Below, piece by piece: positions 2,692-44,142 of a stretch of 45,715 bases of DNA. The notes beneath the pieces were generated by a model, which was given only the letters and a program-made list of their open reading frames with translations, was not told the origin of the DNA and searched no databases. Every line of letters begins with the position of its first letter. Within the stretch, counting starts at the first letter, position 1. The DNA comes from an uncultured virus (IMG/VR IMGVR_UViG_2061766007_004262) (taxonomy: Duplodnaviria; Heunggongvirae; Uroviricota; Caudoviricetes), in the IMG/VR virus record IMGVR_UViG_2061766007_004262; one strand, written 5' to 3'. Position numbers and translations under genes: made by a program.

Positions 2692-2970
2692 GATGCGTCA
2701 GCAAACTAGTAAACTCCTGACTCCTACCTCCACACTGCTCCCTATTTTCCCTTCCGCCCGATCCTCTGCGCGAGCTTGGTTACCTCCACGATGGGGATCA
2801 CCATCAGCGCGATGCCGACCGCCAGGGCGAAGGANNNNNNNNNNGCACTGCTCCCTATTTTCCCTTCCGCCCGATCCTTAGTCAGGAGTTAGGAGTCAGG
2901 AGTTTTAGTTGCTTGGATGCGTCAGCAAAACTATAAAAACTCCACACTCCTGACTCCACACTCCACACTG
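2692..2970. repeat. Palindromic element built from heptamer units, downstream of the ATPase (two variant copies)
   Basis: AGGAGTT/AGGAGTC units (about 2879-2904) face ACTCCAC/ACTCCTG units (about 2939-2969) around a GATGCGTCAGCAAA core. A half copy sits at 2692-2736. Confidence 0.55.
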
Positions 2971-2974
2971 ATCC

Positions 2975-4600
<1,626 letters not shown>

Positions 4601-4610
4601 NNNNNNNNNN

Positions 4611-4778
4611 GGCATCACAGCCATGAAGGCGCTTCTGGGAAGAAAACGATTTGACGAAATCCTGGGCGGACTTACGTTCAAGCCGCCGGGAAAGCCAACC
4701 TTAGTACCTGAGTCGGACAAGCGTCCGGCCATGACTACAGCGAAAAACGATTTTGAGGAGGATACTATCCATGAGTAA
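4611..4778 (+). CDS. DUF2800-family phage protein (PD-(D/E)xK exonuclease-like), C-terminal fragment
   Basis: GITAMKALLGRKRFDEILGGL..KPPGKPTLVPESDKRPAM matches the typical DUF2800 C-terminus, and it sits directly upstream of DUF2815 and polA. Confidence 0.75.
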   Translation, partial: GITAMKALLGRKRFDEILGGLTFKPPGKPTLVPESDKRPAMTTAKNDFEEDTIHE

Positions 4779-5332
4779 GTTCGTAAATCCCTGCAAAGTA
4801 ATCACCGGTCCCAACACCCGCTGGTCCTACGCAAATGTGTGGGAAGCCCGCTCGATCAATGGCGGGACGCCCAAGTTCTCCATCTCCCTGATCATCCCGA
4901 AAACGGATACTGCCACCATCGAGAAGATCAACCGCGCCATCCAGGCTGCGTATGAGGAAGGCCAGAGCAAGCTGAAGGGCACCAGCAAGTACATGCCCGC
5001 ACTTGAGGATATCAAGACTCCGCTGCGCGACGGCGACAAAGAGCGCAAGGGCGATCCCACCTATGCCGGGTGCATGTTCATCAACGCCAACAGCAGCACC
5101 GCGCCTGGAATCGTGGANNNNNNNNNNGCCCATACTTGAACGCTCCGAGGTGTACTCCGGCGTCTACGGCCGGGCCAGCATCACGCTGTATGCCTTCAAC
5201 AGCAACGGCAACCGGGGCATCGCCTGCGGCCTGAACAACCTGCAGAAGATCCGCGACGGTGAGCCACTGGGCAGCCGCAGCCGGGCTGAGGACGACTTCG
5301 ATACCGAAGACGATGACGATTTCCTGTCATAA
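4771..5332 (+). CDS. DUF2815 phage ssDNA-binding protein (T7 gp2.5-like), with a 10-N gap
   Basis: TRWSYANVWE...PKFSISLIIPK...PLRDGD...EVYSGVYGRAS...GIACGLNNLQKIRDGEPL, ending in an acidic tail. GAGGA RBS. Confidence 0.88.
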
Positions 5333-5372
5333 AAAAACACCGGGCGGCAGAGTTGTGAACTCTGCTGCCCGG
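5331..5372. terminator. Strong GC-rich hairpin between ssb and the polymerase gene
   Basis: CCGGGCGGCAGAGTT-GTG-AACTCTGCTGCCCGG, preceded by an A-run (a U-tract on the minus strand). Confidence 0.6.
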
Positions 5373-5393: not shown

Positions 5394-8303
5394 ATGAAGT
5401 CGATTTCAATCGATATCGAGTCCCGCAGCGGCGTTGATCTCGGAAAATGCGGAGTTTATAAGTATGTTGAGAGCCCGGACTTCGATATACTGCTTTTAGG
5501 CTACGCAGTTGATGGAAGCGAGGTTAAGGTCGTTGATTTGGCGCGCGGAGAGCAGCTCCCTGAGGAAGTATTGCAGGCAATTGCGGGTGATGATGTAATA
5601 AAATGGGCATTTAATGCGGGATTTGAGCGTATCTGTTTGTCTGCGTGGCTAAGGAAGCACTGTCCTGATCTGTTTCGTGGTTACGGTATACCGGAGGACA
5701 CCGTGGGCAATTATCTCGATCCGCGATCATGGCGCTGCTCCATGGTGTGGTCGGCTTATCTGGGTCTGCCGTTATCGCTTCAGGGCGTCGGCGCTGTGCT
5801 GAAACTGGAAGACCAGAAAATGACAGAGGGTAAGGCGCTCATCCGATATTTCTGCATGCCATGCAAGCCGACCGCGTCTAACGGCGGCAGGACATGGAAT
5901 CTCCCGGAGCACGCGCCCGACAAATGGGCTGTTTTTAAGGAATATAATAAACGAGACGTTGAGGTGGAAATGGCGATACAGAAAAAGCTGGCCGCCTTTC
6001 CTGTTCCCGATTCCGTTTGGAGTGAATACCATCTGTCCGAAGAAATAAACGACAGGGGCATCGCACTGGACAGGGAGATGGTCAGACAGGCCATAGCCTT
6101 TGACGATCTATCCCGGGACGAGCTCTCCGCCGAGATGCAGCGGCTGACGCAGATGGAGAATCCAAACTCCGTTGCGCAGATGAAACAATGGCTTGCCGAT
6201 CACGGCATGGAAGTCGAATCGCTGGACAAAAAGGCTGTAAAAGAGCTGCTGAAAACCGCGCCGCCGGAGCTGGCAAAAGCGCTGGAGCTTCGTCAGCAGC
6301 TTGCCCGGTCGAGCGTGAAGAAGTACATCGCCATGGAGAATTGCGTCTGTGCTGACGGGCGCTGCCGGGGAATGTTTCAGTTCTACGGAGCCAACCGCTC
6401 CGGGCGCTGGGCTGGACGGCTGGTGCAGTTGCAGAATTTGCCGCAGAATCACATTCCCGATCTTGCCGCGGCCCGCAGTCTGGTCAAGGCCGGCGACTAT
6501 GAAATGTTCAGGTTGCTGTATGAGGATGTGCCCGATACCCTTAGCCAGCTGGTCCGGACGGCGTTTGTGCCGAAACCGGGTTACAAGTTTATCGTCAGCG
6601 ACTTCAGTGCCATTGAAGCCAGAGTGATTGCTTATCTTGCCGGAGAGCAATGGCGATTAGATTTGTTCGCCCGTGGCGGTGATATCTACTGTCAAAGTGC
6701 CAGTCAAATGTTCAAAGTTCCGGTTGAAAAGCATGGCGTCAACGGACATCTTCGTCAAAAGGGAAAAATCGCAGAACTCGCCTGCATTGCCGAAGGCCAA
6801 CTTGTGCTCACTAACCATGGAGAAAAGCCCATAGAAGATGTTTTGTTAGACGATCTTGTATGGGATGGTACAGCGTGGGTACAGCATGAAGGCGTTGTCT
6901 ACAATGGAATCCGGGAGGTTATCACATATGAAGGACTTACAGCAACACCTGGCCACTTCATCTGGATTGAGGGGGAATCGGAGCCCGTACAGTTTGGATT
7001 CGCCGCCGCCAGCGGCGCACATCTCTTACAAACCGGAAATGGTGGGCAGGCAATACGGCTGGGTGAGCATTATCAGTCCGGAGAAACGCTGGAACCGGAC
7101 ATGGGATCACTGTTATGTGCTGACTCGCTGCACGGGATGCGGCGCTGTTCAGTGGCAGTTCATGGATCTGCTGACCCGCGGAAAGTCTCAAGGCTGTCAG
7201 GCATGTTCACAGCCCCGGCGGATACCGAAATGGCTGGATCGGAGGCTGACAGCGGCAAAGCAACGGTGCGAGAATCCGAAAGATCCGGAGTATCAGCATT
7301 ACGGCGGCAGAGGAATACAGTTTCAGTTCCCCAGCGTCCTGGAAGCGGGACTTTATCTGATCAGGAGATACGGGTTGCCGGACAGAGCGTTGGAACTGGA
7401 TCGGATATATACGAACAGTCATTATGCCCCCGGGAACATCCGCTTTGTCACCAGGGCGCAGAATCAAGCAAACCGGAGAAATACAGTACTGAGCGAATTC
7501 GCACAGGAGTACTGGCCGTATGTCCGCAACGTTGTTGTCCGGAAACTTTCACAGGGGTTGACCAGAGACGAGATCATTCGGGACGCAGAGATGGCAGTAC
7601 TCGAGAGAAGAAAGAACTGGAGGCTCATCAGTGCGCGGCTCGACTTTATGACATACGAAATGCCGGACCACATCACCGTTTTACCGTATCGGGGAAGCTC
7701 GTCCACAACTGTGGATACGGCGGCAGTGTCGGCGCTTTAAAAGCCATGGGCGCTCTGGACATGGGCTTGAAGGAGGAGGAACTTCAGCCGCTGGTCACGG
7801 CGTGGCGCGAATCCAATCCCAACATTGTGTCTTTCTGGTGGGATGTCGATGAATCGGTAAAGAAAGCTGTCCGGCAAAAGATAGAAACAGAAACACACGG
7901 CCTCCGCTTTACCTGCTTAAGCGGTATGCTTTTCATCACCCTGCCCTCCGGCAGGCGGTTGGCCTATGTGAAACCGAAGATTGGAATCAACAAGTTCGGC
8001 GGGGAATCCGTCACCTATGAAGGCGTCGGCACCACCAAAAAATGGGAACGAATCGAAAGCTATGGGCCGAAATTTGTGGAAAACATTGTTCAAGCAATCA
8101 GCAGGGACATCCTGTGTTACGTCATGCGAACGCTGAGCCACTGCTTCATCTGCGGACATGTGCATGATGAGCTGATCATAGAAGCCAGCGAGGGTGTGGA
8201 TCTGCAGGCAGTCTGTGAGCAGATGGGACGAGTGCCACCGTGGCTGCCGGGAGCTGTGCTAAGGGCTGAAGGGTATGAGTGCAGATTTTATCAGAAGCAG
8301 TGA
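5394..8303 (+). CDS. Phage-type family A DNA polymerase containing an intein
   Basis: 3'-5' exonuclease motifs (SIDIES, AFNAGFER, YNKRDVE), RSGRWAGRLVQLQNLP, motif A SDFSAIEAR, motif B RQKGKIAELA/CGYGG split by the intein, ENIVQAISRD, and motif C HVHDE. Confidence 0.95.
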   Translation: MKSISIDIESRSGVDLGKCGVYKYVESPDFDILLLGYAVDGSEVKVVDLARGEQLPEEVLQAIAGDDVIKWAFNAGFERICLSAWLRKHCPDLFRGYGIPEDTVGNYLDPRSWRCSMVWSAYLGLPLSLQGVGAVLKLEDQKMTEGKALIRYFCMPCKPTASNGGRTWNLPEHAPDKWAVFKEYNKRDVEVEMAIQKKLAAFPVPDSVWSEYHLSEEINDRGIALDREMVRQAIAFDDLSRDELSAEMQRLTQMENPNSVAQMKQWLADHGMEVESLDKKAVKELLKTAPPELAKALELRQQLARSSVKKYIAMENCVCADGRCRGMFQFYGANRSGRWAGRLVQLQNLPQNHIPDLAAARSLVKAGDYEMFRLLYEDVPDTLSQLVRTAFVPKPGYKFIVSDFSAIEARVIAYLAGEQWRLDLFARGGDIYCQSASQMFKVPVEKHGVNGHLRQKGKIAELACIAEGQLVLTNHGEKPIEDVLLDDLVWDGTAWVQHEGVVYNGIREVITYEGLTATPGHFIWIEGESEPVQFGFAAASGAHLLQTGNGGQAIRLGEHYQSGETLEPDMGSLLCADSLHGMRRCSVAVHGSADPRKVSRLSGMFTAPADTEMAGSEADSGKATVRESERSGVSALRRQRNTVSVPQRPGSGTLSDQEIRVAGQSVGTGSDIYEQSLCPREHPLCHQGAESSKPEKYSTERIRTGVLAVCPQRCCPETFTGVDQRRDHSGRRDGSTREKKELEAHQCAARLYDIRNAGPHHRFTVSGKLVHNCGYGGSVGALKAMGALDMGLKEEELQPLVTAWRESNPNIVSFWWDVDESVKKAVRQKIETETHGLRFTCLSGMLFITLPSGRRLAYVKPKIGINKFGGESVTYEGVGTTKKWERIESYGPKFVENIVQAISRDILCYVMRTLSHCFICGHVHDELIIEASEGVDLQAVCEQMGRVPPWLPGAVLRAEGYECRFYQKQ
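6783..7709 (+). mobile_element. Intein (309 aa) inserted in polymerase motif B
   Basis: Block A CIAEGQLVLT, block B LTATPGH, block F LYDIRNAGPHHRF and block G KLVHN, followed by Cys(+1). Removal restores KGKIAELA-CGYGGSVGAL. Confidence 0.93.
6994..7740 (+). CDS. Zinc-ribbon/HNH-type homing endonuclease-like protein in the +1 frame inside the intein
   Basis: VGRQYGW...CTGCG...SQGCQAC...KQRCENPKDPEYQHYGGRGI...LELDRIYTNSHYAPGNIRFVTRAQNQANRR matches the phage 'YGGRGI...DRID...Y.PGN' HNH-like family. The frame is open 6850-7740. The start is uncertain: TTG 6994 with GGAG at 6980, or ATG 7039. Confidence 0.8.
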   Translation: MDSPPPAAHISYKPEMVGRQYGWVSIISPEKRWNRTWDHCYVLTRCTGCGAVQWQFMDLLTRGKSQGCQACSQPRRIPKWLDRRLTAAKQRCENPKDPEYQHYGGRGIQFQFPSVLEAGLYLIRRYGLPDRALELDRIYTNSHYAPGNIRFVTRAQNQANRRNTVLSEFAQEYWPYVRNVVVRKLSQGLTRDEIIRDAEMAVLERRKNWRLISARLDFMTYEMPDHITVLPYRGSSSTTVDTAAVSAL

Positions 8304-8343: not shown

Positions 8344-9786
8344 TTATTCAACAAGGCGACTTATTATCTCAATTTTATATACTTCTGTAAGATCGTATTC
8401 GTAGATTGAGGCGATGATAATCTGATGGTCAGCAAAGTCACGCTGAAGGATGTGAAACATCGCTGCTATGTTTTTCTGATCAACCTCTTTCCCACTCGGA
8501 GAATCAAGTATAATTGGCAGTTTAATCCCTATGGCTTTTTCAATCGCAGTAATGTATGCAAGACGGAAAGCAAAAACTGTTTTATGAAGGATCGCGCCTG
8601 ATAGCTCTTTAAGATTGCTTGTGAAAAGGTATAGTTCCCGGAACTGCTTCTCTTTTGTAAGATCAAGTTCTCCAGCATACTTGTAAGCAGTTTTGAAAAG
8701 CTCATCGACAATTGCGTTATTTACTTTTGTGGAATTAGTGATTCGCTGACGTACATCCTGCAATTGCTTGTCGATACTATCAATTATTCTTTGAATAGCG
8801 ATTGCATCGAGTGGAAGTCTTGCAATATTTTGGCTGGCAATTTCCAACATACTTGGTGCTGTGAAAAAGGACAATTGCTCATCTTCAAGTATTTGAGCCT
8901 TCTTTTTCACTTCGAGTTGCCTGCTGAGTTTTGACAGCCTTTGTGTAATAATTTTCTTTCTTGCTTCAAGTATTTCCGCATGATCATTATAACCAACAAT
9001 GTTGGCTGGTGTAACCATTATTTCTTCACCCGTGCTCGACCGCACGAAAATTTTCATATTGGAAATGAAATTAATAAATTCCTTGTTCCCACGGATGGAT
9101 TCATTAATTCTCCTCAATTCAGCACGCACTTCTCCTTGTTCCAACAGAAGTGCCTCAATTTGGATTTTTTCGCGTTCTGCGTAATCATCACCGAGAACGC
9201 TGCCCTGTTCTTCGATGATTTCCTCCCGGAACTGGGAAATGCTTAACAACTGCCTGTACTTCTTTTTGTCAGCTTCCAGTTTTTTTTGCCGAGCCAAAAG
9301 TTCGTCGCAGTTTCTATCAGATAATCCGCGAATAAGTTCTTCAATGTTAAAACTGATTGAACCGATGACCTTTCCTCGATTCAGCAGCGTCCATCCTTTT
9401 TCTTGATCCAGATAAAAAGATCCGAGAAGATTATTTAGGATATTTATGTTTTCCGTACTAAAAAGTATACCTTGGAGCTTATATTGTTCAGCCGGGAGTA
9501 TATAAGTTCTTTTTTCACCGTTGATTACCGCATCGATTGCATACTGACTTATCCTTGTTAGTGCAATCGTTCCGATACCGCATTCGACAACGCTTTCGAC
9601 TTCACATGCTTCAAAATTTATGTTCCTTGTGTTTGGTATTGGATAACCGATAGAATAGAGCAAAAACCTCAGAAGGGTTGTCTTGCCACGCGTGTTTTCG
9701 ACGCTGTGTATCAAATTAATAGCATCCGAGAAGTTGAACTTTCTCTCAAAAGTTCCTTCTTTGATTCTAATCGACACAAATTTCAT
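8344..9786 (-). CDS. Short SMC/ABC-type ATPase (Lamassu LmuB-like)
   Basis: N-terminal Walker A variant ENTRGKTT, YLDQEKGW (Q-loop), central coiled coil, LSGA signature, Walker B IILDSP and QIIIAS. It overlaps the upstream nuclease gene by 4 nt. Confidence 0.72.
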   Translation of the reverse strand: MKFVSIRIKEGTFERKFNFSDAINLIHSVENTRGKTTLLRFLLYSIGYPIPNTRNINFEACEVESVVECGIGTIALTRISQYAIDAVINGEKRTYILPAEQYKLQGILFSTENINILNNLLGSFYLDQEKGWTLLNRGKVIGSISFNIEELIRGLSDRNCDELLARQKKLEADKKKYRQLLSISQFREEIIEEQGSVLGDDYAEREKIQIEALLLEQGEVRAELRRINESIRGNKEFINFISNMKIFVRSSTGEEIMVTPANIVGYNDHAEILEARKKIITQRLSKLSRQLEVKKKAQILEDEQLSFFTAPSMLEIASQNIARLPLDAIAIQRIIDSIDKQLQDVRQRITNSTKVNNAIVDELFKTAYKYAGELDLTKEKQFRELYLFTSNLKELSGAILHKTVFAFRLAYITAIEKAIGIKLPIILDSPSGKEVDQKNIAAMFHILQRDFADHQIIIASIYEYDLTEVYKIEIISRLVE

Positions 9787-10799
9787 AATCGCAATTTCTC
9801 CTTAATTCGATCGATTTCGAATACCTGATGGATGATGCTTCCTATGGTAATCTTGATAATGTCCTCCCTTACGGATTCATCTACTGACAGTGTTTGGAAG
9901 TCCTCCAGATATTGTTTCCATTCATTACCGATGAAAGCCTTCATTTTCTCCCGCGCATTTCCCGAACTGGTGTATGAGCGGAAATCGTAGAGGACTCTCG
10001 AATAGAATTCAAATTTCTCCTGCTTGTAATTGATTACCTCGCCGTAAGATCTGATTATCTCATCATACGTTGCCGGATCATAATCTTGGCGAATCCCGTC
10101 ATCGCCACGTATGTCAGTAAGGATTGCCAAGAGCGGCCAAATAATCCCGGCTTTTGTAATGGTTACACTTTTCGCCTTTGTGCTTCCATTATGCAGCACT
10201 TGAGTCTGCCAGACTTCGAGCAATTGGTCAGTGAGATGTTCGTGGTTTGCGTTTTTTACGCCCGCTCTGCCAAGAAATGCTTTCACTACTTCTCGAACAA
10301 CTTTATAACGTTCGCTTTCATCATCGCCTACAAAAGGTATCACCTGAATCCGGAATTTTGACAGATCAATCTGTATTCCAGCTTTTGTAATAATCTTATC
10401 GATAATCGTCTTTGCTCTGTCAGGCAAGTCCTTATAGTCTTTATGCGCATGGCCATAAAAGCAATTCATTGTTGCAACATCGTTTAGAGGATTTATTGAG
10501 TTGGTCACCATCACGAGATGATGAATAGGGCTCGTTGCCTTTTGCGCTGCTTCTGACAGACTGATCAATGCCTTCTTCAGGTTCCCGCGCACATGAGAGA
10601 AATCAGATTCTGCGTTTACTACTGCCTTTGCCTGCGCAAAAATCCAGCTTCCATCGTTAAGGCGCAAGTCGATGTCCTCGTATTCACCTTCAGTACGGAC
10701 AGATTGAAGATCCACAATGTTTTCCAGCATGAGGACAATAGCGGCGTTTATTTCAAAGTTGAAGCCCAACATGACGGTGCTTGCAGATCTATCAGCCAT
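9783..10799 (-). CDS. Cap4/DUF4297-like PD-(D/E)xK endonuclease (Lamassu LmuA-like effector)
   Basis: N-terminus ASTVMLGFNFE...EGEYEDIDL...FAQAK fits the Cap4-type nuclease pattern (GF.yQ/E...E..ED....Q.K). ATG 10799 follows AGGTG. Confidence 0.7.
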   Translation of the reverse strand: MADRSASTVMLGFNFEINAAIVLMLENIVDLQSVRTEGEYEDIDLRLNDGSWIFAQAKAVVNAESDFSHVRGNLKKALISLSEAAQKATSPIHHLVMVTNSINPLNDVATMNCFYGHAHKDYKDLPDRAKTIIDKIITKAGIQIDLSKFRIQVIPFVGDDESERYKVVREVVKAFLGRAGVKNANHEHLTDQLLEVWQTQVLHNGSTKAKSVTITKAGIIWPLLAILTDIRGDDGIRQDYDPATYDEIIRSYGEVINYKQEKFEFYSRVLYDFRSYTSSGNAREKMKAFIGNEWKQYLEDFQTLSVDESVREDIIKITIGSIIHQVFEIDRIKEKLRL

Positions 10800-10871
10800 T
10801 GCCCACACCTTCTTTCTAAAAACATTCTGTGATATTTTCCAGTTATCTTTCACTGATATGATTGTGATAAC

Positions 10872-34356: not shown

Positions 34357-34366
34357 NNNNNNNNNN

Positions 34367-34624
34367 CGCCCATCGCGCACACTCGGGTATATAGAAGACG
34401 TTGTCCTTCGTGTAGAAAGGCATCATCTCCAGAAACGCCTGCTGGCCGTTGGCGATCATCTGCTCGCGATGCTCGTCAAAGCGGTCGTTCGCGTATTTCA
34501 GGAAGATCATCGACAGCACGACGTGTTTATACTCTGCCGGTTCAACCTTGCCGCGCAGCTTGTTGGCTGCGTCCCACAAGGTCTGCTCAATCGGTCTTTG
34601 ATCTTTTACTTTATCAGCAGGCAT
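34367..34624 (-). CDS. hsdM: Second type I RM M subunit, N-terminal fragment
   Basis: IEQTLWDAANKLRGKVEPAEYKHVVLSMIFLKY...NVFYIPECARW, GGAGG RBS, cut by a gap. Confidence 0.85.
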
Positions 34625-34700
34625 TTTTGTCCCTCCAGCATAATCTTGGCAAGAATAACTACCATATATATAATAAACCAAAATAATTATACCAAAAAAC

Positions 34701-34742
34701 AAACCGCTCTTCAACCTCAAAACAAGGCATTAGAGCGTTTTC
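34701..34742. terminator. Conserved hairpin at the cassette end (copy 2)
   Basis: About 4 differences over 41 nt from the copy at 30944. Confidence 0.55.
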
Positions 34743-34746
34743 CCGA

Positions 34747-35241
34747 TTAGCCTGCCAAATATTCCACCGGTATCTTTTGCCCCTTCGCATACTGGATCGT
34801 GTACATGGTTCCGCTGGGTTTGCCGTTGAATACGGCTATGACCCTCGAACTCATGTCGACCATCCACTGATTCCGCTGCTGATAAGCATCCTCCCTGTAC
34901 GAGGAGCATATGTATTTCACGAAGTCGGCTTGCCCGATGAGGTTCCTGTACCGCGTTTTCCAGTTCTCCGGCCAGTAGTCCTCAGACCCCACGAACGGCA
35001 CAGCGGCTATAAGCTTTAGGTACGGATTCTTCTCTTTGAGCCTTACGACTATCTCCCCGGCCCAGATATCCACACCGGAGGCCATGCCGGTTATGAACGT
35101 GGTGAACCCGTCACCGATGGCAGTCAGTATCGACTTTTCGAGGTCGGCCTTGATCGCAGTGGGGGAGCGCTTCAGCTTCTGCGGTCTATGACCGGTAAAG
35201 CAGCAGCGGTGGCTGCGTAATTCTCTTTGCTTTTTATCCAT
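34747..35241 (-). CDS. SLOG DUF1273/YspA-like protein (copy 2)
   Basis: CCFTGHRP, FITGMASGVD and RNQWMVD. GGAGG RBS. Confidence 0.88.
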   Translation of the reverse strand: MDKKQRELRSHRCCFTGHRPQKLKRSPTAIKADLEKSILTAIGDGFTTFITGMASGVDIWAGEIVVRLKEKNPYLKLIAAVPFVGSEDYWPENWKTRYRNLIGQADFVKYICSSYREDAYQQRNQWMVDMSSRVIAVFNGKPSGTMYTIQYAKGQKIPVEYLAG

Positions 35242-35264
35242 GGTTTTTACCTCCATTTCCACTG

Positions 35265-35513
35265 CTATTCCAGAATGCCGGTATGGCATCCAGTGCAACT
35301 GGCGCGAAGGTGACCGTTGTATGCGCTGAAGGTATAAGTCATTGCGCATCTTTTGCCGCAGATCGGACAGTCGATCGTTCTTTCCTTGCCCGGCTCACAT
35401 TTATGCTCCGCGACATATGCCAAGAGCAAATCCATTCCAGCAGTAAAGTCGATGATCTTCCCATCGTCAATTGTCATGGTCACTTTTTCCACGTTCTCCA
35501 GTCTTGCCATCAT
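35265..35513 (-). CDS. Small zinc-ribbon protein (copy 2)
   Basis: CPICG...YNGHLRASCTGC. Confidence 0.7.
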   Translation of the reverse strand: MMARLENVEKVTMTIDDGKIIDFTAGMDLLLAYVAEHKCEPGKERTIDCPICGKRCAMTYTFSAYNGHLRASCTGCHTGILE

Positions 35514-35616
35514 ACACATCTCCTTCATCATGGTACCATTTCAAAATATTCCTGTATTTCCAACAGAAATTGCATCTTGCAACTTCTGTCAGCCGGTCAG
35601 ATCGTCAGCAGATCCA

Positions 35617-36303
35617 TCAGAGAAGGTGCGCTACATCAAAACCCTTGCACTGCAGCGTTTTCAGGATCTCGTTTGCGCATTTTTCACCCAGGCTCCGGAT
35701 ATCCATCAGTGCCTCTCTGTTTTTCAGGTCAAGTACGTCGGATATGGTCTTTCGTCCGGCCCGCATCAGTGCGTTGAATGAACGTGCTGACAGACCCAGA
35801 TCGATGATCCCAGATCTTCTCGTCAGAGGACCGCTTTCGTTATCATTTTCCAGATGCCTGGGGTGCAGGCCGTTCATCCTGCACAGGTGCTCGAGCCGGC
35901 GAATCTCTGTAACACGCTCTTTGACAGATCTTTCAAACTCAGAAGTCATCCGCATCTTGTACCTCTGGCGTGCATAGGCTGCAACGCCATGAAGGAGGAT
36001 TCCCCTGTATAAAGAATTCTGCCAGAGTTTCGTCATGGCACGGTCTATGATCTGATTCACCCGAGCGCCCGTGATGCCATACTCCCGGCCGATCTCCCTG
36101 TACGGTATGTGCTGCTGATAATGCTTCCGGAGGATCTGCACTTCTCTGTCGCTCAGATTGCATACGGTCAGCACATATTCAACGGTGCCGGTCAACTCTT
36201 TATCGTTCGTCGTGGCTGGGGTCTCTTCATTCAGCGGGAGCTCAGCGTGTTTCCAAAACCCATCCAAAAAACCAAGGGGCCATCTGCGTTCTCTGTACAT
36301 CAT
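35617..36303 (-). CDS. Sigma-70 region 4-like HTH fused to an RNA polymerase alpha-CTD-like domain
   Basis: LSDREVQIL..HY....YREIG..YGIT..RVNQI..RAM.KL, then IIDLGLSARSFNALMRAG..TISDVL....LMDIRSLGEKCANEI. Confidence 0.8.
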   Translation of the reverse strand: MMYRERRWPLGFLDGFWKHAELPLNEETPATTNDKELTGTVEYVLTVCNLSDREVQILRKHYQQHIPYREIGREYGITGARVNQIIDRAMTKLWQNSLYRGILLHGVAAYARQRYKMRMTSEFERSVKERVTEIRRLEHLCRMNGLHPRHLENDNESGPLTRRSGIIDLGLSARSFNALMRAGRKTISDVLDLKNREALMDIRSLGEKCANEILKTLQCKGFDVAHLL

Positions 36304-36341
36304 ATCCATCTGCCTCCAATCTATCTCATCCAACAAAAAAC

Positions 36342-36620
36342 TTACGACGATTTCTTCTCCACGAACCAGCGGCCGAGCGAGCAGCCTGTGACATTCGACA
36401 GACGCTCAAAAAAGATATAGCTCTGCTGTCCGCCTATCCAGATCGTATACCTGTCGCCCTGCCCGCCTGCCTTCATTGCGTGCGCCGGACGGATGTCAGT
36501 GACCTTGTCGACTTTATACTGTTTTCCTTCCCAGACAATAATGTGGGGCAGCATCTGACCTTCCTCGTTAAACCTTACTTCGACGGGTACATAGACTTTA
36601 TACTCGTTCACCTGCTTCAT
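36342..36620 (-). CDS. Small conserved DinB-associated protein (copy 2)
   Basis: Nearly identical to 31778-32056. Confidence 0.75.
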   Translation of the reverse strand: MKQVNEYKVYVPVEVRFNEEGQMLPHIIVWEGKQYKVDKVTDIRPAHAMKAGGQGDRYTIWIGGQQSYIFFERLSNVTGCSLGRWFVEKKSS

Positions 36621-36633
36621 GATTGCCTCCCAG

Positions 36634-37176
36634 TCAATACTCGCCGGTCGGGATGTGTTTTAGAAAATCGCCGTGCGCTATCATGAGCGGATTAATAGAA
36701 TATCCCTCATGCTTCAGGACGCGGAACTTGAAATCGAGAAGCTCCGGAGGAACACACAGCGTTTTCGCTGCACCGAAAAAGGTCATGTCCTGGTTGAGCA
36801 CGTTGAGCACTTCTTCGCTGTCCAGAATAAGCTCGGCAGCGAATACGTTGGCTTCATATTCGCACTGGTCGTTCATGCCGAACAAGTCGAAATCGTGAAA
36901 GCCTCTGAGCGCCGTCAGCCTCCTGTGTAGCTTTATATGCCCGATCTCATGAGCAAGAACGACTTTGCGGATATCCTCTTTCAATTTTGAATTCAGCAGG
37001 ATCACGGGAATGCGGCACTTAACCATACTCATGCCTTTGAAGTCTTCTACACTCATCGCGGTATTATGGTCAATAACCGTGATACCCATATCCCTGCACA
37101 GACGGTCAAGATCGCTATCCTGATACTTTCGCCTGATGCGCAGGACTTCCCCTGAAATATCCTCGTAATTGATCAT
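36634..37176 (-). CDS. ImmA/IrrE-family metallopeptidase (copy 2)
   Basis: HEIGH and EYEANVFAAELIL. Confidence 0.9.
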   Translation of the reverse strand: MINYEDISGEVLRIRRKYQDSDLDRLCRDMGITVIDHNTAMSVEDFKGMSMVKCRIPVILLNSKLKEDIRKVVLAHEIGHIKLHRRLTALRGFHDFDLFGMNDQCEYEANVFAAELILDSEEVLNVLNQDMTFFGAAKTLCVPPELLDFKFRVLKHEGYSINPLMIAHGDFLKHIPTGEY

Positions 37177-37210
37177 CGTCGTTTATCTCCAGTCAAAACA
37201 TGTCTGTAAG

Positions 37211-37660
37211 CTATTTACCCTCAGGGGATCTCCTGGAATTGGGTGTGAACTTTTTCTTCGCTTCGGTCTTCGCTGTTACATAAGCTGTCATGATGGCTTC
37301 GAAGAAAGCGTCTTTATCTTCCTGGGGGATCTCGCCGCCTGCAAAGAAAGCACTGTTCCTGTCAAGAAGCTCCGCTGCCTCCATCGCGCCTTTTGAACCG
37401 AATCTTTCACGCGCCATGTTGATATTCTCTTCCCGCGCGCGGCCCTGATCCGGATCGTCACTGTCGTCGTCCGTAAGATAGGCAACAGTCACATCGAGCG
37501 CCCGCGCCAGTTTACGCAGTATGTTTTTTCTCGGGACAGAATCGCCATTCTCGTAAGCGAAAATGGAGCGTCTCGATACGCCTACCTGCACCGACAGATC
37601 CGTCTGGCTGATGTGTGCCTTCTCTCTTGCTTCTCTAAGCTTTTCCGGGAACTTGCTCAT
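37211..37660 (-). CDS. XRE-family HTH repressor, ImmR-like (copy 2)
   Basis: FPEKLREARE...SQTDLS..VGVSRRSIFAYENG...LARALDVTVAYL. GGAGG RBS. Confidence 0.9.
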   Translation of the reverse strand: MSKFPEKLREAREKAHISQTDLSVQVGVSRRSIFAYENGDSVPRKNILRKLARALDVTVAYLTDDDSDDPDQGRAREENINMARERFGSKGAMEAAELLDRNSAFFAGGEIPQEDKDAFFEAIMTAYVTAKTEAKKKFTPNSRRSPEGK

Positions 37661-37688
37661 ACTCTCCTCCGTGTAGAAAAAATTTTCT

Positions 37689-37822
37689 TCAAACTTCCCA
37701 ATTGCTCCAAAACGGGCTTGACGATTTGTTCGCAATCTGGTAAACTCTGCCTCGCTAATGAGAAGTTGATTGAATTATAGTTCCTATAGCAAGGCTTGTC
37801 AATATGCAATTGGGAAGTTTGA
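37689..37822. promoter_or_regulatory. Two face-to-face promoters enclosed by perfect 17-bp inverted repeats (cassette 2)
   Basis: TCAAACTTCCCAATTGC (37689-37705) and GCAATTGGGAAGTTTGA (37806-37822). Plus strand TTGACG-17-TAAACT and minus strand TTGACA-17-TATAAT lie between them. Confidence 0.75.
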
Positions 37823-37848
37823 GAAAATAATTCGGGGATGGGAACAAA

Positions 37849-39093
37849 ATGTCAAATCAGAGTGTCATACTTCACAGCGACCTGAACTGCTACTACGCCA
37901 GCGTGGAGATGAACGAGCACCCGGAGCTGAAGGGCAAGAAGATCGCGGTATGCGGTTCCACCGAGAACCGGCACGGGATCGTGCTGACCGCCAGCTACCC
38001 GGCCAAGCGTTCCGGCGTGAAGACCGGTATGGCCAACTGGCAGGCAAAGCAGGCGTGCCCCGACCTGATCATGGTGGACCCGCATTATGACCTGTACCTG
38101 CACTACAGCAGGATCGTCCGTTCCATTTATAAAAGATACGCAAACGACATCGAGCCTTTCGGAATGGATGAAAACTGGATCGCCATACACGGCTGTGACG
38201 ATGTAGCGACCGACGGTTATCAGATCGCGGAGGAGATACGGGAGACAGTCAAAGAGGAGACAGGACTGACCGTCAGTATCGGAGTTTCCTTCAGCAAGAT
38301 CTTCGCCAAGCTCGGCAGCGACATGAAGAAGCCGGATGCCGTTACAGTGGTCAGCCGGGAGAACTACAGGGATACCGCCTGGAAACTGCCCGTGTCCGAT
38401 CTGCTGTACGTCGGTCCGGCCACGACGAGAAAGCTGCTGAAGTACAATATCCACACGATCGGAGACCTGGCGAAAGCCGACCCGAACCTCATATTCCACA
38501 ATCTGGGCAAAAACGGTGCCATGCTGTGGAATTTTGCCAACGGCACAGATTATTCCCCGGTCATGCCCCAGGACTATGTGAGCCCCATAAAGACCATCGG
38601 CCACGGCACGACCTGCGTCCGGGATCTGGATACGAACTATGAGGTGTGGCTGGTACTGCTGGAACTGGCGCAGGACGTAGGCCACCGGCTGCGCAAACAC
38701 GAATCTACGGCAAAAGGTGTGGAAATCGCCGTGCGCGACAAGGATCTGGGCTGGTATATGTGGCAGATGCCGCTGCCGTATCCGACGCAGAGTCCGTTCG
38801 AGATCGCGCAGGCCGGATATGCGCTGTTCCGTGCGCAGTACACATGGGAAAAGCCTATCCGATCGCTCACCATCCGCGGGATCAAGCTCATCAGTGCCAG
38901 CGCCTCGGTTCAGACTGACATATTCAACGATTTTGACCTGCGCGAAAAGCGCCGTAAACTCGACGACGCAATCGACGAACTCAGGGAGCGCTTTGGCTAC
39001 AGGGCTATTTTCCCCGCCTGCCTGAAGGACGGACTTCCGGTTGCAAAGGACAGGTGCGAGACGGTGCCGATGCCAAGCCCTATGTACAGGTGA
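37849..39093 (+). CDS. dinB: Y-family DNA polymerase IV (copy 2, complete)
   Basis: Same motifs as copy 1, with C-terminal QTDIF (clamp-binding-like) and LDDAIDELRERFG. Confidence 0.93.
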   Translation: MSNQSVILHSDLNCYYASVEMNEHPELKGKKIAVCGSTENRHGIVLTASYPAKRSGVKTGMANWQAKQACPDLIMVDPHYDLYLHYSRIVRSIYKRYANDIEPFGMDENWIAIHGCDDVATDGYQIAEEIRETVKEETGLTVSIGVSFSKIFAKLGSDMKKPDAVTVVSRENYRDTAWKLPVSDLLYVGPATTRKLLKYNIHTIGDLAKADPNLIFHNLGKNGAMLWNFANGTDYSPVMPQDYVSPIKTIGHGTTCVRDLDTNYEVWLVLLELAQDVGHRLRKHESTAKGVEIAVRDKDLGWYMWQMPLPYPTQSPFEIAQAGYALFRAQYTWEKPIRSLTIRGIKLISASASVQTDIFNDFDLREKRRKLDDAIDELRERFGYRAIFPACLKDGLPVAKDRCETVPMPSPMYR

Positions 39094-39198
39094 TTACGCT
39101 GCTTCCTCTTGGAACATACCGTCGGCGTGTGTTCACAAGAGTTTACTCCCGAGAGCCGACATGCTGCAGAGAATTTAAGATGTGAAGGGGTGATTTTA

Positions 39199-39375
39199 AT
39201 GCAAAAGAGAGCAGCAGTCAAAAACGATAAAAAGGCCATGGTTTCCGCTGAAGATGCGGAGATCATCCGTAAGATACGCGCAATACTGCGAACAGGAAAG
39301 GAGGTACTGCTGGAACTGGATTCGGATGGGAACACCCGGGTAAGCAGTCTGACACTGGAAGAATGCGGAGTATGA
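39199..39375 (+). CDS. Small hypothetical protein
   Basis: GGGGTG RBS before ATG, downstream of dinB. Confidence 0.45.
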   Translation: MQKRAAVKNDKKAMVSAEDAEIIRKIRAILRTGKEVLLELDSDGNTRVSSLTLEECGV

Positions 39376-39404
39376 GTTGATGAGTTTTTGTGAGGGTATG
39401 TAGA

Positions 39405-39614
39405 ATGAAAAGAGCGATAAGAAATCTGTCCAGTAAAAGGCTTGTCCCGGCCCACCTGTTCGATGTGGTGATCGACGAAGAGAATCCTCAGATGATCTAC
39501 ATTGAGCAGAAAATAGTCGACCGCAAGGGTGGGAAAACACACACAGAGCGCGCCCTCTGGGATGACGTGCTAAACCAGGTCGAAACGGCTGTCAGGGACA
39601 GCAAAGCAGTTTAG
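39405..39614 (+). CDS. Small hypothetical protein (variant partial copy at 39964-40117)
   Basis: GAGGG RBS. The second copy differs mostly at synonymous positions. Confidence 0.6.
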   Translation: MKRAIRNLSSKRLVPAHLFDVVIDEENPQMIYIEQKIVDRKGGKTHTERALWDDVLNQVETAVRDSKAV

Positions 39615-39637
39615 ATAAACCTTGAAAACCGAATAAG

Positions 39638-39707
39638 GGAACTATCGTAACCGGCCCCGTAACCAATCGAGGAGCCAACTTCGGAGTTACCCGACTATGG
39701 AACTACC
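39638..39707 (+). repeat. 61-bp structured tandem repeat (variant 1, cut by gap)
   Basis: GGAACTA... units start at 39638 and 39699. Confidence 0.75.
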
Positions 39708-40140
39708 NNNNNNNNNNTATTTCGCAATGCTAAAACAGCAGATCCGTCTCCGTTTTAGTATTGCAGGGAGAAAGTAAAACACACCATCGAAGATAACAGC
39801 CGACGGGCTGTCATCATAAAAACAAATCTCAAAGCCTGAGATGCGCATTAAGGCGGCGGGATGCATAAAGAGCAGTGACAGCGGGATGACCGCTTCAAAG
39901 CCAATGCACTCCACCGAGCCTTGCTGCGCCTTTTTCCAGCTGGCCGGTCGGTGNNNNNNNNNNTGATTTGGTGATCGACGAAGAGAATCCTCATAAGATC
40001 TACATTGAGCAAAAAATAGTCGACCGCAAGGGTGGGAAAACACATACAGAGCGCGCACTATGGGACGACGTGCTCAACCAGGTCGAAACGGCTGTCAGAG
40101 ACAGCAAAGCAGTTTAGATAAACCTTGAAAACCGCATAAG

Positions 40141-40306
40141 GGAACTATCGTAACCGGCCACGTAACCAATCGAGGAGCCAACTTCGGAGTTACCCGACTA
40201 TGGAACTACCGCAACCAGCCCCGTAACCAATCGAGGAGCTAACGTCGGAGTTACCTTTAACGAAAGCCTTCACCAAGGCACACGTATAGGTAACTCCGGC
40301 GTTTTT
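40141..40306 (+). repeat. 61-bp structured tandem repeat plus antisense arm and T-run (variant 2)
   Basis: Units at 40141 and 40202 (6 mismatches over 54 nt). The downstream AGGTAACTCCGGCGTT is complementary to AACGTCGGAGTTACCT. Confidence 0.75.
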
Positions 40307-40538
40307 NNNNNNNNNNNNNNNNNNNNNNNNNNNNNNNNNNNNNNNNNNNNNNNNNNNNNNNNNNNNNNNNNNNNNNNNNNNNNNNNNNNNNNNNNNNNNN
40401 NNNNNNNNNNNNNNNNNNNNNNNNNNNNNNNNNNNNNNNNNNNNNNNNNNNNNNNNNNNNNNNNNNNNNNNNNNNNNNNNNNNNNNNNNNNNNNNNNNNN
40501 NNNNNNNNNNNNNNNNNNNNNNNNGGAAAGGACACATC

Positions 40539-41084
40539 ATGAAAATCCAGATTCGCTACGACAACCACCTCACTACCATCGACGTTCCAGAGGAAGATTT
40601 CACCCTCATGATCCAGCTGGATTACGAACAGCGTCTGGCTGATTCCAAAGACCCTGCGTCCGTGAAGCCGCGATCCCCGCAGGAGATCATGGATGAACGC
40701 TTCAATAGGCCGGACTACAACAACTGGCACAGACATTGGCGGCACACTGATGGCAAGCCTGTGCCAAAGATTCGAGGCACACGACTGCCGCTAGTTGATG
40801 ATGCAGACGAGCGCGAGGAAGAACATCACTTCACAATGGACGAATTCCCTGATACTGCCGCGATAGAAAAACAGAAACGGAATGAAAAGGATCTCGAAAT
40901 ACGATCATGGATTCAGAGAAAACTAAAACCTGACTATGCAGAAATGCTGATTGCCATTCATGTTGATGGTATGTCTGTCAACGACTATGCCGCAAGAATT
41001 CGTGATAACCCGAACAATGTGAGCCACCGGCTGAAGCGCGCTGAAAAAAATTTGAGAGAAATTTGGAGAAAACGTCCGATTTGA
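40539..41084 (+). CDS. Sigma-70 region 4-like regulator of phage-like elements
   Basis: N-terminal MKIQIRYDN. C-terminal LKPDYAEMLIAIHVDGMSVNDYA......NNVSHRLKRAEKNL forms an HTH. Confidence 0.7.
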   Translation: MKIQIRYDNHLTTIDVPEEDFTLMIQLDYEQRLADSKDPASVKPRSPQEIMDERFNRPDYNNWHRHWRHTDGKPVPKIRGTRLPLVDDADEREEEHHFTMDEFPDTAAIEKQKRNEKDLEIRSWIQRKLKPDYAEMLIAIHVDGMSVNDYAARIRDNPNNVSHRLKRAEKNLREIWRKRPI

Positions 41085-41621
41085 CTCATCGCCAAGGCTA
41101 CCCAATGGATACACGGAAAAACAAAGACTTATCTGCTCCACCGTTGTGTTCTGAATGTTGAGTGGCAGTCTGCCGCAGAAAAGTGTGTGGATCATATTAA
41201 TGGAAACAAACTGGATAACAGGAAGGCAAATCTCCGGATTGTCAGTTACGCACAAAACGCAGCAAACAGGCACGCGGTTTTAACATCAACAGAGAGACTT
41301 CACGTATCAAAATCCGGGCAAGCATACATTGCCCGACTTAGAATAGATGGAGTGCCCATTTATATCGGGTCCTTTTCCAACCCTGAAAAAGCGGAACATG
41401 CTGTTAAACGTTATATTGAAACAAGCCAATTTCCTTATGAGAAACGCAAAACACGGAAGGTGCGGCAGAAATCGATGTCAGGTGAAGTGATCGCTACATA
41501 TGCTTCCTGCATGGAGGCATCAAAACATACTGGCATATGCGCAGAGAATATTTGCCGGGTTGCTAACCATGACCGTCAGCGAAAACAAGCTGGCGGTTTT
41601 CTTTGGGAAGATGCAAATTAG
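41085..41621 (+). CDS. HNH endonuclease with AP2-like and NUMOD1-like C-terminal domains, probably 5'-truncated
   Basis: LLHR...VDHINGNKLDNRKANLR...N..N, YIGSF...EKA, and S..EASKHTG...NI.RV......QAGGFLW. The frame continues directly from the TGA of the sigma-like gene. Confidence 0.7.
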   Translation, partial: LIAKATQWIHGKTKTYLLHRCVLNVEWQSAAEKCVDHINGNKLDNRKANLRIVSYAQNAANRHAVLTSTERLHVSKSGQAYIARLRIDGVPIYIGSFSNPEKAEHAVKRYIETSQFPYEKRKTRKVRQKSMSGEVIATYASCMEASKHTGICAENICRVANHDRQRKQAGGFLWEDAN

Positions 41622-41630
41622 GAGGTTCGC

Positions 41631-42448
41631 ATGAAAAATCCATTCATCGCATTTTTCCGCGCACGCGACAAGCCCAGAGATGCAGTCAGCGCCGCAACGA
41701 CATTCTCGTTTGGTATTGCTGGATCGGGAAAAAGCGTCAATGCCAGATCGGCTATACAGGTATCAGCAGTTTACGCCTGCGTGCGCGTAATCGCCGAAAC
41801 TGTGGCGTCACTGCCCTTCGCCGTATTCGAGCAGGACAAGGAAGGCAGTCATAAGGCACTGGATCATCCGCTGTACAGGCTTCTCCATGATGAGCCGAAC
41901 CCGGAGATGACGTCCTTTGTCTGGCGCGAGGCTATGCTCACACATCTTTTGCTGTGGGGGAACTCGTATAGTCAGCTGTTGCGGGCAGGGCGCGGGAACA
42001 TCGTGGGCATCTACCCGCTGCTGCCAGACCGCATGGAGGTGGACAGGGACGACAAGGGAAACCTGACGTACACCTATTCCACCACAAGCGGCCAGACGGT
42101 CAAGCTCCGTCCGGAAGACGTGCTTCATATCCCGGGCCTGGGCTTTGACGGCATCATGGGCTACAGCCCCATAGCGGTTGAACGCAATGCCGTGGGCTTG
42201 TCCATAGCGGCGGAGGAATTCGGCAGCAAGTTTTTCTCCAACGGTGCGCGTCCTTCCGGCATCCTGACGCACCCGAATACGGTAAAGAATCCCAAGGCGC
42301 TCAGGGAGAGCTGGGATGCGGCATACGGCGGATCCGGCAATGCCAACCGTGTCGCAGTCATCGAGGAAGGCATGACGTTTACCCCGATCAGTATACCGAA
42401 CAACGAAGCGCAGTTCCTGGAGACGCGGAAGTTCCAGGTGGAGGAGAT
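41631..42448 (+). CDS. HK97-family phage portal protein (truncated by gap)
   Basis: SAVYACVRVIAETVASLP, HPLYRLLHDEPNPEMTSF, LLLWGNSY, VLHIPGLGFDG..GYSPI and AQFLETRKFQ. AGGAGG RBS. Confidence 0.93.
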
Positions 42449-42458
42449 NNNNNNNNNN

Positions 42459-43165: not shown

Positions 43166-43175
43166 NNNNNNNNNN

Positions 43176-44132: not shown

Positions 44133-44142
44133 NNNNNNNNNN

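Follow-up and report, generated by a model that had tools for sequence, protein, structure and literature searches.

Bifunctional inteins of the canonical kind encode an HNH domain in frame with their splicing domains, and some described systems have the endonuclease in another reading frame. In the dnaX intein of cyanobacteria, a LAGLIDADG homing endonuclease is encoded by an open reading frame (ORF) in the +2 frame (Phillips, DeSimone & Gogarten, bioRxiv 10.64898/2026.09.14.751524), an out-of-frame arrangement that, as cited in the same preprint, was first proposed by Gorbalenya 1998. A survey of actinobacteriophages describes “non-canonical” inteins that contain an EndoVII-like homing endonuclease in frame 3, as well as antisense LAGLIDADG or VSR-like genes, and presents the HNH endonucleases as in frame only (Gosselin, Arsenault & Gogarten, bioRxiv 10.1101/2025.01.02.630785). 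In the ShiLan insert, an HNH gene lies out of frame within methylases; no splicing domains were detectable, and the insert is for this reason thought to remain in the methylase as a loop (PMC11855218). In the fractured genes described in 2009, an endonuclease gene is placed in the intein of genes for DNA metabolism, and the host gene consists of two ORFs with products that are spliced in trans (PMC2677866). Here, we analyse a stretch of 45,715 nucleotides from an uncultured virus of the Caudoviricetes (IMG/VR record IMGVR_UViG_2061766007_004262), called the window below, in which the intein of a PolA-type DNA polymerase gene overlaps a second gene in the +1 frame. We consider it very likely that this is a mini-intein with a separately initiated, out-of-frame HNH-like nuclease that drives its homing. 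A first-pass annotation, made from the sequence alone, had implied that the layout was new, which does not hold because out-of-frame endonucleases in inteins have already been published.

The polymerase gene (5394..8303, plus strand) is an ORF of 969 aa that is open without a break in frame 0 and contains no runs of N. It belongs to family A according to the matches in Pfam (DNA_pol_A, E 1.8e-16) and PHROG (phrog_17 “DNA polymerase”, E 1e-131). The ORF, these matches, and an alignment with relatives place the N-extein at 5394..6782 (plus strand), ending in LRQKGKIAELA, which we take to lie within polymerase motif B. The ORF and the alignment place the C-extein, including the stop codon, at 7710..8303 (plus strand), where it starts from Cys+1 with CGYGGSVGAL. 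The class-1 intein between them, delimited by alignment with relatives, is located at 6783..7709 (plus strand), has exactly 309 codons, begins with CIAEG in frame 0, and ends in ...LYDIRNAGPHHRFTVSGKLVHN, followed by Cys+1. The insertion point is inside the conserved ...LRQKGKIAELA|CGYGG... stretch of the polymerase, and the intein-less relatives in the phage records read either AELA-L-GYGG (663 aa) or AELA-C-GYGG (651 aa) at this site.

The first-pass annotation had claimed a complete set of splicing blocks, and C1, TPGH, and HN/C+1 are all present, with residues that are invariant in an alignment of 23 inteins. The N-terminal splicing domain (residues 1-85; 6783..7037, plus strand) is conserved in these inteins and contains the Cys1 nucleophile (TGC at 6783), which is placed directly after the N-extein and is invariant in 23/23, and the TxxH motif of block B, which is T-P-G-H in the window and T-P/A-D-H in the relatives, with an invariant H58. 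The C-terminal splicing domain (residues 279-309; 7617..7709, plus strand) contains blocks F and G and the terminal HN, and is constrained at all three codon positions. Its invariant residues are RLYDIR..HR.TVS..LVHN, of which H308 and N309 belong to the LVHN|C junction at 7704-7712. The block names B, F, and G are those that we presume to apply to these motifs. Between the two domains, residues 86-278 (7038..7616, plus strand) form a frame-0 “tether” that is open, unconserved, and predicted to be disordered, and that coincides with the body of the +1-frame gene. The intact blocks, together with the selection for an open frame 0 presented below, suggest that the polymerase intein is capable of protein splicing.

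The nested gene (6928..7740, plus strand) consists of 270 codons in the +1 frame, from an ATG at 6928 to a TAA at 7738-7740, and covers intein codons 49-309 plus 31 nt of the C-extein. As stated in the first-pass annotation, the +1 frame has no stop codons from 6850 to 7737 and ends 31 nt beyond the intein, and the CxxC..CxxC, YGGRGI, DRI, and conserved Asn motifs are all contained in this ORF. The zinc-ribbon-like CxxC...CxxC motif (C68, C71, C90, and C93, counted from the ATG at 6928; 7129..7206, plus strand) corresponds to alignment columns that are invariant or at least 90% conserved, and the predicted model has strands at 46-78. The core of the nuclease domain, Y125-G-G-R-G-I ... D158-R159-I-Y161 ... 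N170 ... N182, is located at 7300..7473 (plus strand), and G126, R159, Y166, and N170 are invariant in 68 family sequences. The nested protein is 57-78% identical to the +1-frame ORFs of related loci.

The suggestion of a phage HNH-like nuclease agrees with matches of the +1 protein to three PHROG families of “HNH endonuclease”, phrog_374 (E 5.1e-18), phrog_3377 (3e-15), and phrog_2081 (9.7e-11). A fold search against BFVD gave 89 matches at E<=1e-3, led by a nested ORF of Salmonella phage LPSE1 and phage proteins annotated as HNH or AP2 endonucleases. Structural alignment with VIA-align gave weak similarities to PacI (3m7k; Z 5.8, rmsd 3.1, 77 residues over positions 97-186 of the model) and Gme HNH (Z 2.9). 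The nested protein is a putative nuclease that would cleave DNA.

The layout was surveyed by a uniform tblastn census of 70 sources, consisting of the window and 69 loci from phage records, IMG/VR, and GTDB genomes, while a Jerseyvirus locus (L003) was kept out of the census and analysed separately. The related loci include 28 from the IMG/VR scan and 36 from the GTDB genome scan, and the GTDB matches are mostly from Bacillota, including Lachnospiraceae, Oscillospiraceae, Megasphaera, Allobaculum, Acidaminococcus, and Christensenella. In the tblastn search with the +1 protein, five Streptococcus prophage records and a Gardnerella phage were 62-67% identical, and in these records the nuclease sits under one annotated “DNA polymerase I” coding sequence (CDS), each time with an offset of +1. 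The nuclease frame is +1 relative to the intein C-terminus and the C-extein in 70/70 sources; the +1 frame is in other words conserved in the homologs, and a nuclease fused in frame was found in 0/70. Full-length inteins of 305-310 codons are present in 51/70 sources (44 distinct sequences), all of them without stops in frame 0; the length is 309 codons, with 305 and 310 as the only variants. The +1 ORF is at least 250 aa in 49 of the 51 full-length copies, and in the other two (L005 and L040) the +1 frame stops prematurely. Deletion derivatives of 120-168 codons, each of which is open in frame 0, account for another 11/70, while 7/70 are truncated by contig ends or rearranged and 1/70 (L039) has a frameshift in the polymerase frame.

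These data bear on the explanation that the layout is a sequencing or assembly artefact, in which a canonical in-frame HNH intein has been disguised by two compensating indel errors, a possibility that the first-pass annotation had itself raised. We found nothing in favour of this explanation. The +1 offset recurs in all of the independent sources, which include complete phage and bacterial genomes, and the intein length is fixed. Furthermore, contigs from three other DNA sequencing runs, belonging to three studies, span 6700-7797 with substitutions only and 0 indels, and the +1 ORF never returns to frame 0 and ends at its own stop codon. We therefore regard an artefact as extremely improbable. 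The one frameshifted locus, L039:3357-4282 from Eubacterium plexicaudatum ASF492, has an intein of 926 nt with a one-base frame change near intein codon 43 that puts the N-extein and the first 42 intein residues into the nuclease frame, and it could be explained by pseudogenization, by a fusion that arose naturally, or by an error in sequencing.

To describe selection in each frame, we calculated the mean pairwise difference by frame-0 codon position in a gap-free alignment of 22 distinct 927-nt inteins and their flanks. The exteins and the first 48 intein codons show ordinary frame-0 coding evolution, with differences at positions 1, 2, and 3 of 0.285, 0.200, and 0.616 in the N-extein, 0.244, 0.137, and 0.573 in intein nt 1-144, and 0.315, 0.224, and 0.612 in the C-extein. 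The corresponding values in the middle of the intein (nt 256-810) are 0.568, 0.293, and 0.220, and because frame-0 position 1 is position 3 of the +1 frame, this region evolves as a +1 coding sequence. The two ends of the overlap are constrained in both frames, with values of 0.245, 0.090, and 0.261 in nt 145-255 and 0.233, 0.165, and 0.186 in nt 811-927. Consistently, the Nei-Gojobori proportions from 231 pairs gave a pN/pS of 0.30 for the intein middle in the +1 frame vs 1.41 in frame 0 and 1.11 in the +2 frame, while the exteins have a pN/pS of 0.27-0.34. The synonymous divergence is near saturation, with a pS of about 0.8.

To evaluate the absence of frame-0 stops, we generated from each of the 22 sequences 5000 versions in which synonymous codons were shuffled in the +1 frame. 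No frame-0 stop was observed in 22/22 sequences, as compared with 5.2-13.2 expected, and at most 0.0004 of the shuffles were free of stops. The third frame has 5-18 stops. In the middle 185 codons of the window's intein there are 0 stops vs 5.2 expected (zero-stop share 0.0004). The only sensible account of this avoidance is that ribosomes read frame 0 right through the insert. Selection holds the polymerase frame open, and the selected protein of the intein middle is the +1 nuclease. The codon-position pattern, the frame-specific pN/pS, and the stop avoidance, which extends to the 51/51 full-length copies, bear out the dual coding proposed in the first-pass annotation.

The same patterns speak to the alternative of a dead relic, according to which an ancestral in-frame HNH intein was frameshifted and the +1 ORF is a decaying pseudogene that appears conserved only through the constraint on the polymerase frame. 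Decay does occur, as seen from the premature +1 stops in 2/51 full-length copies and the loss of the middle in 11/70 sources, and the window's copy has a private Tyr at residue 161. In addition, three relatives of the nuclease (P0012, P0052, and P0148) switch frame midway and are thus read partly in each frame; they represent either decay or misassembly, or else they hint at fusion. However, substitutions concentrate at the third position of the +1 frame, and the contrast in pN/pS is the opposite of what a frame-0 constraint would leave behind. The +1 ORF is also intact in 49/51 copies despite the pS of about 0.8. Finally, no relative contains the domain in the polymerase frame throughout: the family comprises 24,487 cluster representatives at E<=1e-3 (73 at E<=1e-30), and among the best 150 of these 24,487, nearly all of which are 80-330 aa long, there is no polymerase (~960 aa) with the nuclease in frame over its whole length. 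A dead relic is in our view very improbable.

The nested gene has start signals of its own. A Shine-Dalgarno (SD)-like GGGAGGT (6913..6919, plus strand) is located 8 nt upstream of the ATG at 6928, and a motif of the GAGGT type is kept in the relatives. The ATG is placed at intein nt 146 in 47/51 full-length copies, and the remaining four have an ATG at nt 149, 149, 134, or 107. Three of the four alternative ATGs have an SD-like GGAG/GAGG 7-11 nt upstream, and in the nt-107 copy (L015) the distance is ~15 nt, so that a start codon with an upstream SD-like motif is retained in 51/51 copies. Moreover, the +1 frame contains a stop 1-2 codons upstream of the nested ATG in 13/25 sources checked, which disfavours entry from far upstream and makes internal initiation the best reading. 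Most likely, then, ribosomes initiate internally on the polymerase mRNA to produce the nuclease. The first-pass annotation had proposed separate synthesis “by internal start or +1 frameshift”, and it is the first of these two options that fits the conserved SD-like motif and ATG.

The second option, programmed +1 ribosomal frameshifting, would yield a fusion of the N-extein, the N-terminal part of the intein, and the nuclease. A shift signal could be hidden in the overlap zone of nt 146-255, which is highly conserved at all codon positions, and natural fusions of the upstream frame with the nuclease are seen in L039 and P0148. However, the conservation of this zone is already accounted for by double coding, and such a fusion would lose the C-terminal splicing lobe and waste the polymerase. 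The start codon and the SD-like motif are also retained at similar spacing (7-11 nt in most copies) with a nearby ATG replacing a lost nt 146, and the +1 stops close upstream of the ATG in 13/25 sources also count against it. We consider frameshifting improbable as the source of the nuclease. P0148 (640 aa) consists of a helicase-like part, an N-terminal intein lobe (CVLRDT...TATPDH...), and then the nuclease family in the same frame, while the C-terminal splicing lobe is absent; from its sequence, it may be a genuine fusion or a frameshifted copy of a helicase intein that holds this nested gene too.

Structures were predicted with AlphaFold2 for the products of both frames. The model of the +1 protein, based on 68 aligned sequences, has a mean pLDDT of 87.4 with block means >80 over residues 21-250, and is poor only in the first 20 and the last 15-20 residues, terminal stretches whose DNA also encodes the splicing lobes. 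It consists of a beta-rich N-terminal domain with the four cysteines, a central helix-and-hairpin unit that contains YGGRGI...DRI(D/N)...N...N, and a helical C-terminal domain. The model of the frame-0 intein, based on 23 aligned sequences, has a pLDDT of 88-95 over residues 1-80, 61 over residues 81-90, and 83-91 over residues 279-309, whereas residues 86-278 have a pLDDT of about 30 and no secondary structure in the model. The first-pass annotation had described the intein middle as free of an endonuclease in frame 0, in line with this unfolded prediction and with the database searches, in which the frame-0 intein had no match in Pfam and matched one PHROG family over residues 18-64 only. 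A Foldseek search of the PDB with the frame-0 model gave inteins as all top matches with a probability of about 1.0, the best being gp41-1 (6qaz, E 1.4e-3), followed by the Npu DnaE, Ssp DnaB, and RecA mini-inteins. Disorder over two thirds of the model accounts for the weak E-values. The 11 natural deletion derivatives lose precisely the disordered middle. Together, the disorder and the deletion forms suggest that the product of the polymerase frame is a mini-intein with a long, floppy tether of ~190 aa.

Members of the nuclease family occur as free-standing genes annotated as HNH endonuclease in phages of Enterococcus, Vibrio, Staphylococcus, Acinetobacter, and Gordonia; in about 145 records of Salmonella phages and some of Escherichia phages, they are concealed beneath a polymerase CDS. 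Two distant relatives, P0010 and P0006, had no match in viral contigs and may also be intein-nested, as their N-termini resemble the +1 shadow of block B. In Salmonella phage vB_SenS-Ent2, the polymerase intein is annotated as “encoding splicing domains” and has 299 codons, and an unannotated ORF of 247 codons with GGAG and ATG start signals lies within it in the +2 frame. The same +2 layout is present in Jerseyvirus VT223 and in the Escherichia Dhillonvirus Pubbukkers, and across the Jerseyvirus and Dhillonvirus inteins the nested ORF is 247-253 codons long. In Salmonella phage LPSE1, the nested +2 ORF is annotated as a hypothetical protein. A comparison of the middle of the intein between the loci L003 and L072 revealed that the difference peaks at frame-0 position 2, which is the third position of the nested ORF (0.30 vs 0.08 and 0.16), while in the flanks it is greatest at position 3. 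The Jerseyvirus/Dhillonvirus inteins have 0 frame-0 stops vs 3.3 expected, and a zero count was obtained in 0.0066 of the shuffles.

Taken together, we propose that a class-1 intein interrupts a prophage family-A polymerase inside KGK..AELA|CGYGG and that its middle is coded twice. In frame 0, an N-lobe of ~85 aa and a C-lobe of ~31 aa would be joined by the ~190-aa tether, of which nothing would be required beyond freedom from stop codons, allowing ribosomes to complete the polymerase precursor before splicing. In the +1 frame, a separate gene of 270 codons, with its SD-like motif and ATG inside the N-lobe and its stop 31 nt into the C-extein, would encode a zinc-ribbon and HNH-like nuclease with a helical C-terminal domain, as a member of a family whose genes otherwise stand alone in phages. 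Following internal initiation, the nuclease most likely cleaves polymerase alleles that lack the intein, at the insertion site or close to it, and repair of the break most likely copies the intein and the nuclease gene together. It is plausible that the arrangement originated when a free-standing gene invaded a mini-intein.

Homing is the most likely function of the nested nuclease. Its presence is sporadic, with a nuclease of at least 60% identity in 8 phage records vs 342 with a related C-extein. Empty sites were identified in the same three metagenome runs that provided the near-identical contigs, where loose ends at 7712 have ...AELAL immediately ahead of GYGG. The sporadic presence, the empty sites, and the degraded forms, namely two copies with premature stops and 11 deletions, fit a homing cycle. 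Alternatively, the nuclease may be kept for another purpose, such as cutting the DNA of competing intein-less phages or processing DNA during replication. The purifying selection across deep divergence and the way in which intein identity follows extein identity resemble long vertical residence more than repeated invasion, and the GC content of the intein is the same as that of the exteins (0.536 vs 0.535). However, the same sporadic occurrence is at odds with such a role, and the coexistence of empty sites in the metagenomes and the deletion and stop-codon derivatives are classic marks of a homing cycle. Cutting of empty alleles would also serve homing and competition together, so that the two readings overlap. 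A role apart from homing appears unlikely to us.

Several observations weigh against our preferred reading of an HNH-like nuclease that is made from its own start and drives homing. Intein and extein identities are correlated (r = 0.59, ungapped, 39 loci), and no pair with a clearly younger intein was found among the 39 loci compared; recent horizontal homing is therefore unsupported. Apparent outliers with a young intein were rejected, as all of them involve L021, in which the C-extein is shifted by an indel. The assignment to the HNH enzymes is also soft: Foldseek against the PDB gave no match to the +1 model at E<=1e-3, the +1 protein of the window had no match in Pfam or NCBIfam, HNH_3 was matched weakly by 4/68 family members (best E 0.0069), and a profile of the family searched against the PDB sequences gave nothing meaningful and no solved structure by sequence. 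Furthermore, the D-R-I-D/N motif carries an Arg in 68/68 family sequences, and this invariant residue (R159) presumably occupies the position of the catalytic His in HNH_3-type enzymes. Since the structural and Pfam support is soft and an Arg presumably takes the place of the expected His, we call the protein “HNH-like”.

Further points concern the window's own copy and the start signals. Residue 161 is D or N in 44/45 related loci and 66/68 family members, whereas the window has the Tyr codon TAT at 7408..7410 (plus strand), which is private to this copy, and near-identical contigs from the three other runs (X3, X4, and X5) have a G at 7408, which gives Asp. The first-pass annotation had remarked that the D-to-Y change in “DRIY” may indicate decay; the change is indeed private, but decay is only one possibility, since Y161 could be a weakened allele or an assembly error. 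As a Tyr at a site otherwise conserved as D or N, it suggests that the copy in the window may be weakened. The SD-like GAGGT also encodes conserved frame-0 codons (R/K-E-V), and its conservation is for that reason no independent proof of a ribosome-binding site. Contigs from an RNA library (one run) cover 6917-7067 and 7128-7278, but these are possibly DNA-derived and are silent on translation and starts.

A more far-reaching idea, which we put forward tentatively and consider rather doubtful, is that out-of-frame nesting is a stable and preferred state for the HNH-like family and not a short-lived intermediate on the way to an in-frame intein. Because the ends of the nuclease gene are overprinted on the splicing lobes and its body is the tether, most indels that destroy the nuclease would also break the polymerase. 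If so, overprinting would lock the selfish gene to its intein, which could explain intact ORFs over near-saturated divergence in at least two frame arrangements (+1 in the Bacillota prophages, +2 in Jerseyvirus and Dhillonvirus), in several positions of the polymerase, and perhaps also in a helicase.

Additional inteins and neighbouring features were observed in the course of the analysis. The polymerase of an Oscillospiraceae metagenome-assembled genome (L061:1355-5590) contains three inteins. The first (~2366-2773) is broken by a stop at 2648-2668 and resumes with ...ISMRTYDIVNAG..., and from its sequence it may be a naturally split intein. The third (~4451-5332) contains another +1-frame member of the nuclease family at 4635-5354. 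Four loci (L014, L034, L045, and L067) have an extra upstream intein at a “GRW|C” site, around N-extein residue 339, that starts with CLTGDHE... or similar. In Streptococcus phage Javan105 (L074:2480-2700), the intein-less allele has an in-frame TAA within LR*KGKIAELALGYGG, and two “DNA polymerase I” CDSs are annotated for the polymerase; Javan104, which has an intein in its polymerase, resides in the same host strain. A megablast of the whole polymerase gene against phage records gave a single patch, at 7597-7862, with 76-79% identity over ~250 nt, and this patch corresponds to the doubly coded region of blocks F and G and the start of the C-extein.

Immediately downstream of the polymerase gene, a convergent gene pair on the minus strand (8344-10853) matches the candidate defence system PDC-M46. 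The 480-aa protein matches PDC-M46B (E 6e-180) and has similarity to LmuB-like ATPases, the 356-aa protein matches PDC-M46A (E 2e-115), and neither had a match in Pfam. The GC content of these genes is 0.41 vs 0.50 for the window. The window contains fifteen N runs, located within 2835-5127 and 34357-45656, of which thirteen are 10 bases long and the longer two are 149 at 3476-3624 and 218 at 40307-40524.

With these loci, a layout that has so far been documented for a handful of inteins gains a nuclease family, a host gene, and two large phage groups. These are the HNH-like zinc-ribbon family, of which an in-frame form was not found; the gene for a family-A DNA polymerase; and, on the phage side, both the prophages of Bacillota, which come from streptococci and from bacteria of the gut and rumen, and the well-studied phages of Jerseyvirus and Dhillonvirus. 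In the literature covered, we found neither a description of this nuclease family within PolA inteins nor one of the Jerseyvirus case, and one Jerseyvirus paper treats inteins in general terms only. The inspected phage records miss the nested gene, either because a single polymerase CDS is annotated over it or because it is listed as a hypothetical protein, and annotation pipelines that bar long overlaps will overlook it systematically. The natural tethers of 190 aa and the deletion series down to 120 codons show the tolerance of the intein for an unstructured insert. Since the cases in Escherichia phages are culturable, the translation of the hidden gene, its possible role in homing, and the proposed invasion of mini-inteins by free-standing endonuclease genes (“splicing first”) are directly testable.

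Among the known systems, canonical HNH inteins are built from similar kinds of parts, with HINT splicing lobes and, placed between blocks B and F, a nuclease of the HNH type (HNH-like in the polymerase intein), but here the nuclease is outside the intein polypeptide in 70/70 sources. The fractured genes are similar in that the endonuclease is of the free-standing type and in that an overlap of 6-69 bp is common between its 3' end and the intein part that follows (PMC2677866). However, frame 0 of the polymerase intein is continuous (0 stops in 51/51 full-length copies), and the intein is therefore contiguous and not split. The ShiLan insert likewise hides a nuclease gene, there of the HNH type, in another frame of an insert that is open in the frame of the host gene, but it has a GTG start and no ribosome-binding site, and leaderless initiation has been proposed for it (PMC11855218), whereas the polymerase intein has complete splicing blocks and an SD-like motif with an ATG.

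The inteins of the actinophages and the cyanobacterial dnaX gene are similar in more respects. The nuclease family described here appears from its sequence and fold matches to differ from the LAGLIDADG, EndoVII-like, and VSR-like types that have been published in this intein layout. As described for the actinophages, the nuclease is out of frame on the same strand, the in-frame part lacks a recognisable structure, and the proposed origin is the invasion of an intein by a free-standing endonuclease gene; the differences are the EndoVII-like family and the actinophage host genes, where the polymerase is Pol III alpha (bioRxiv 10.1101/2025.01.02.630785). The dnaX intein is likewise located in a replication gene and has an endonuclease ORF in another frame of the same strand, SD-like motifs, and an in-frame middle that is modelled with low confidence. 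Its omega depends on the frame, with values <1 for the nuclease and >1 for the extein frame, and mini-intein and empty alleles are reported to coexist. It differs in its LAGLIDADG family, its +2 offset, and its location in cyanobacterial chromosomes (bioRxiv 10.64898/2026.09.14.751524), whereas the present intein combines an HNH-like nuclease and a zinc ribbon with a +1 offset in the PolA of Bacillota prophages, and its nested ORF extends across both splicing lobes into the C-extein.

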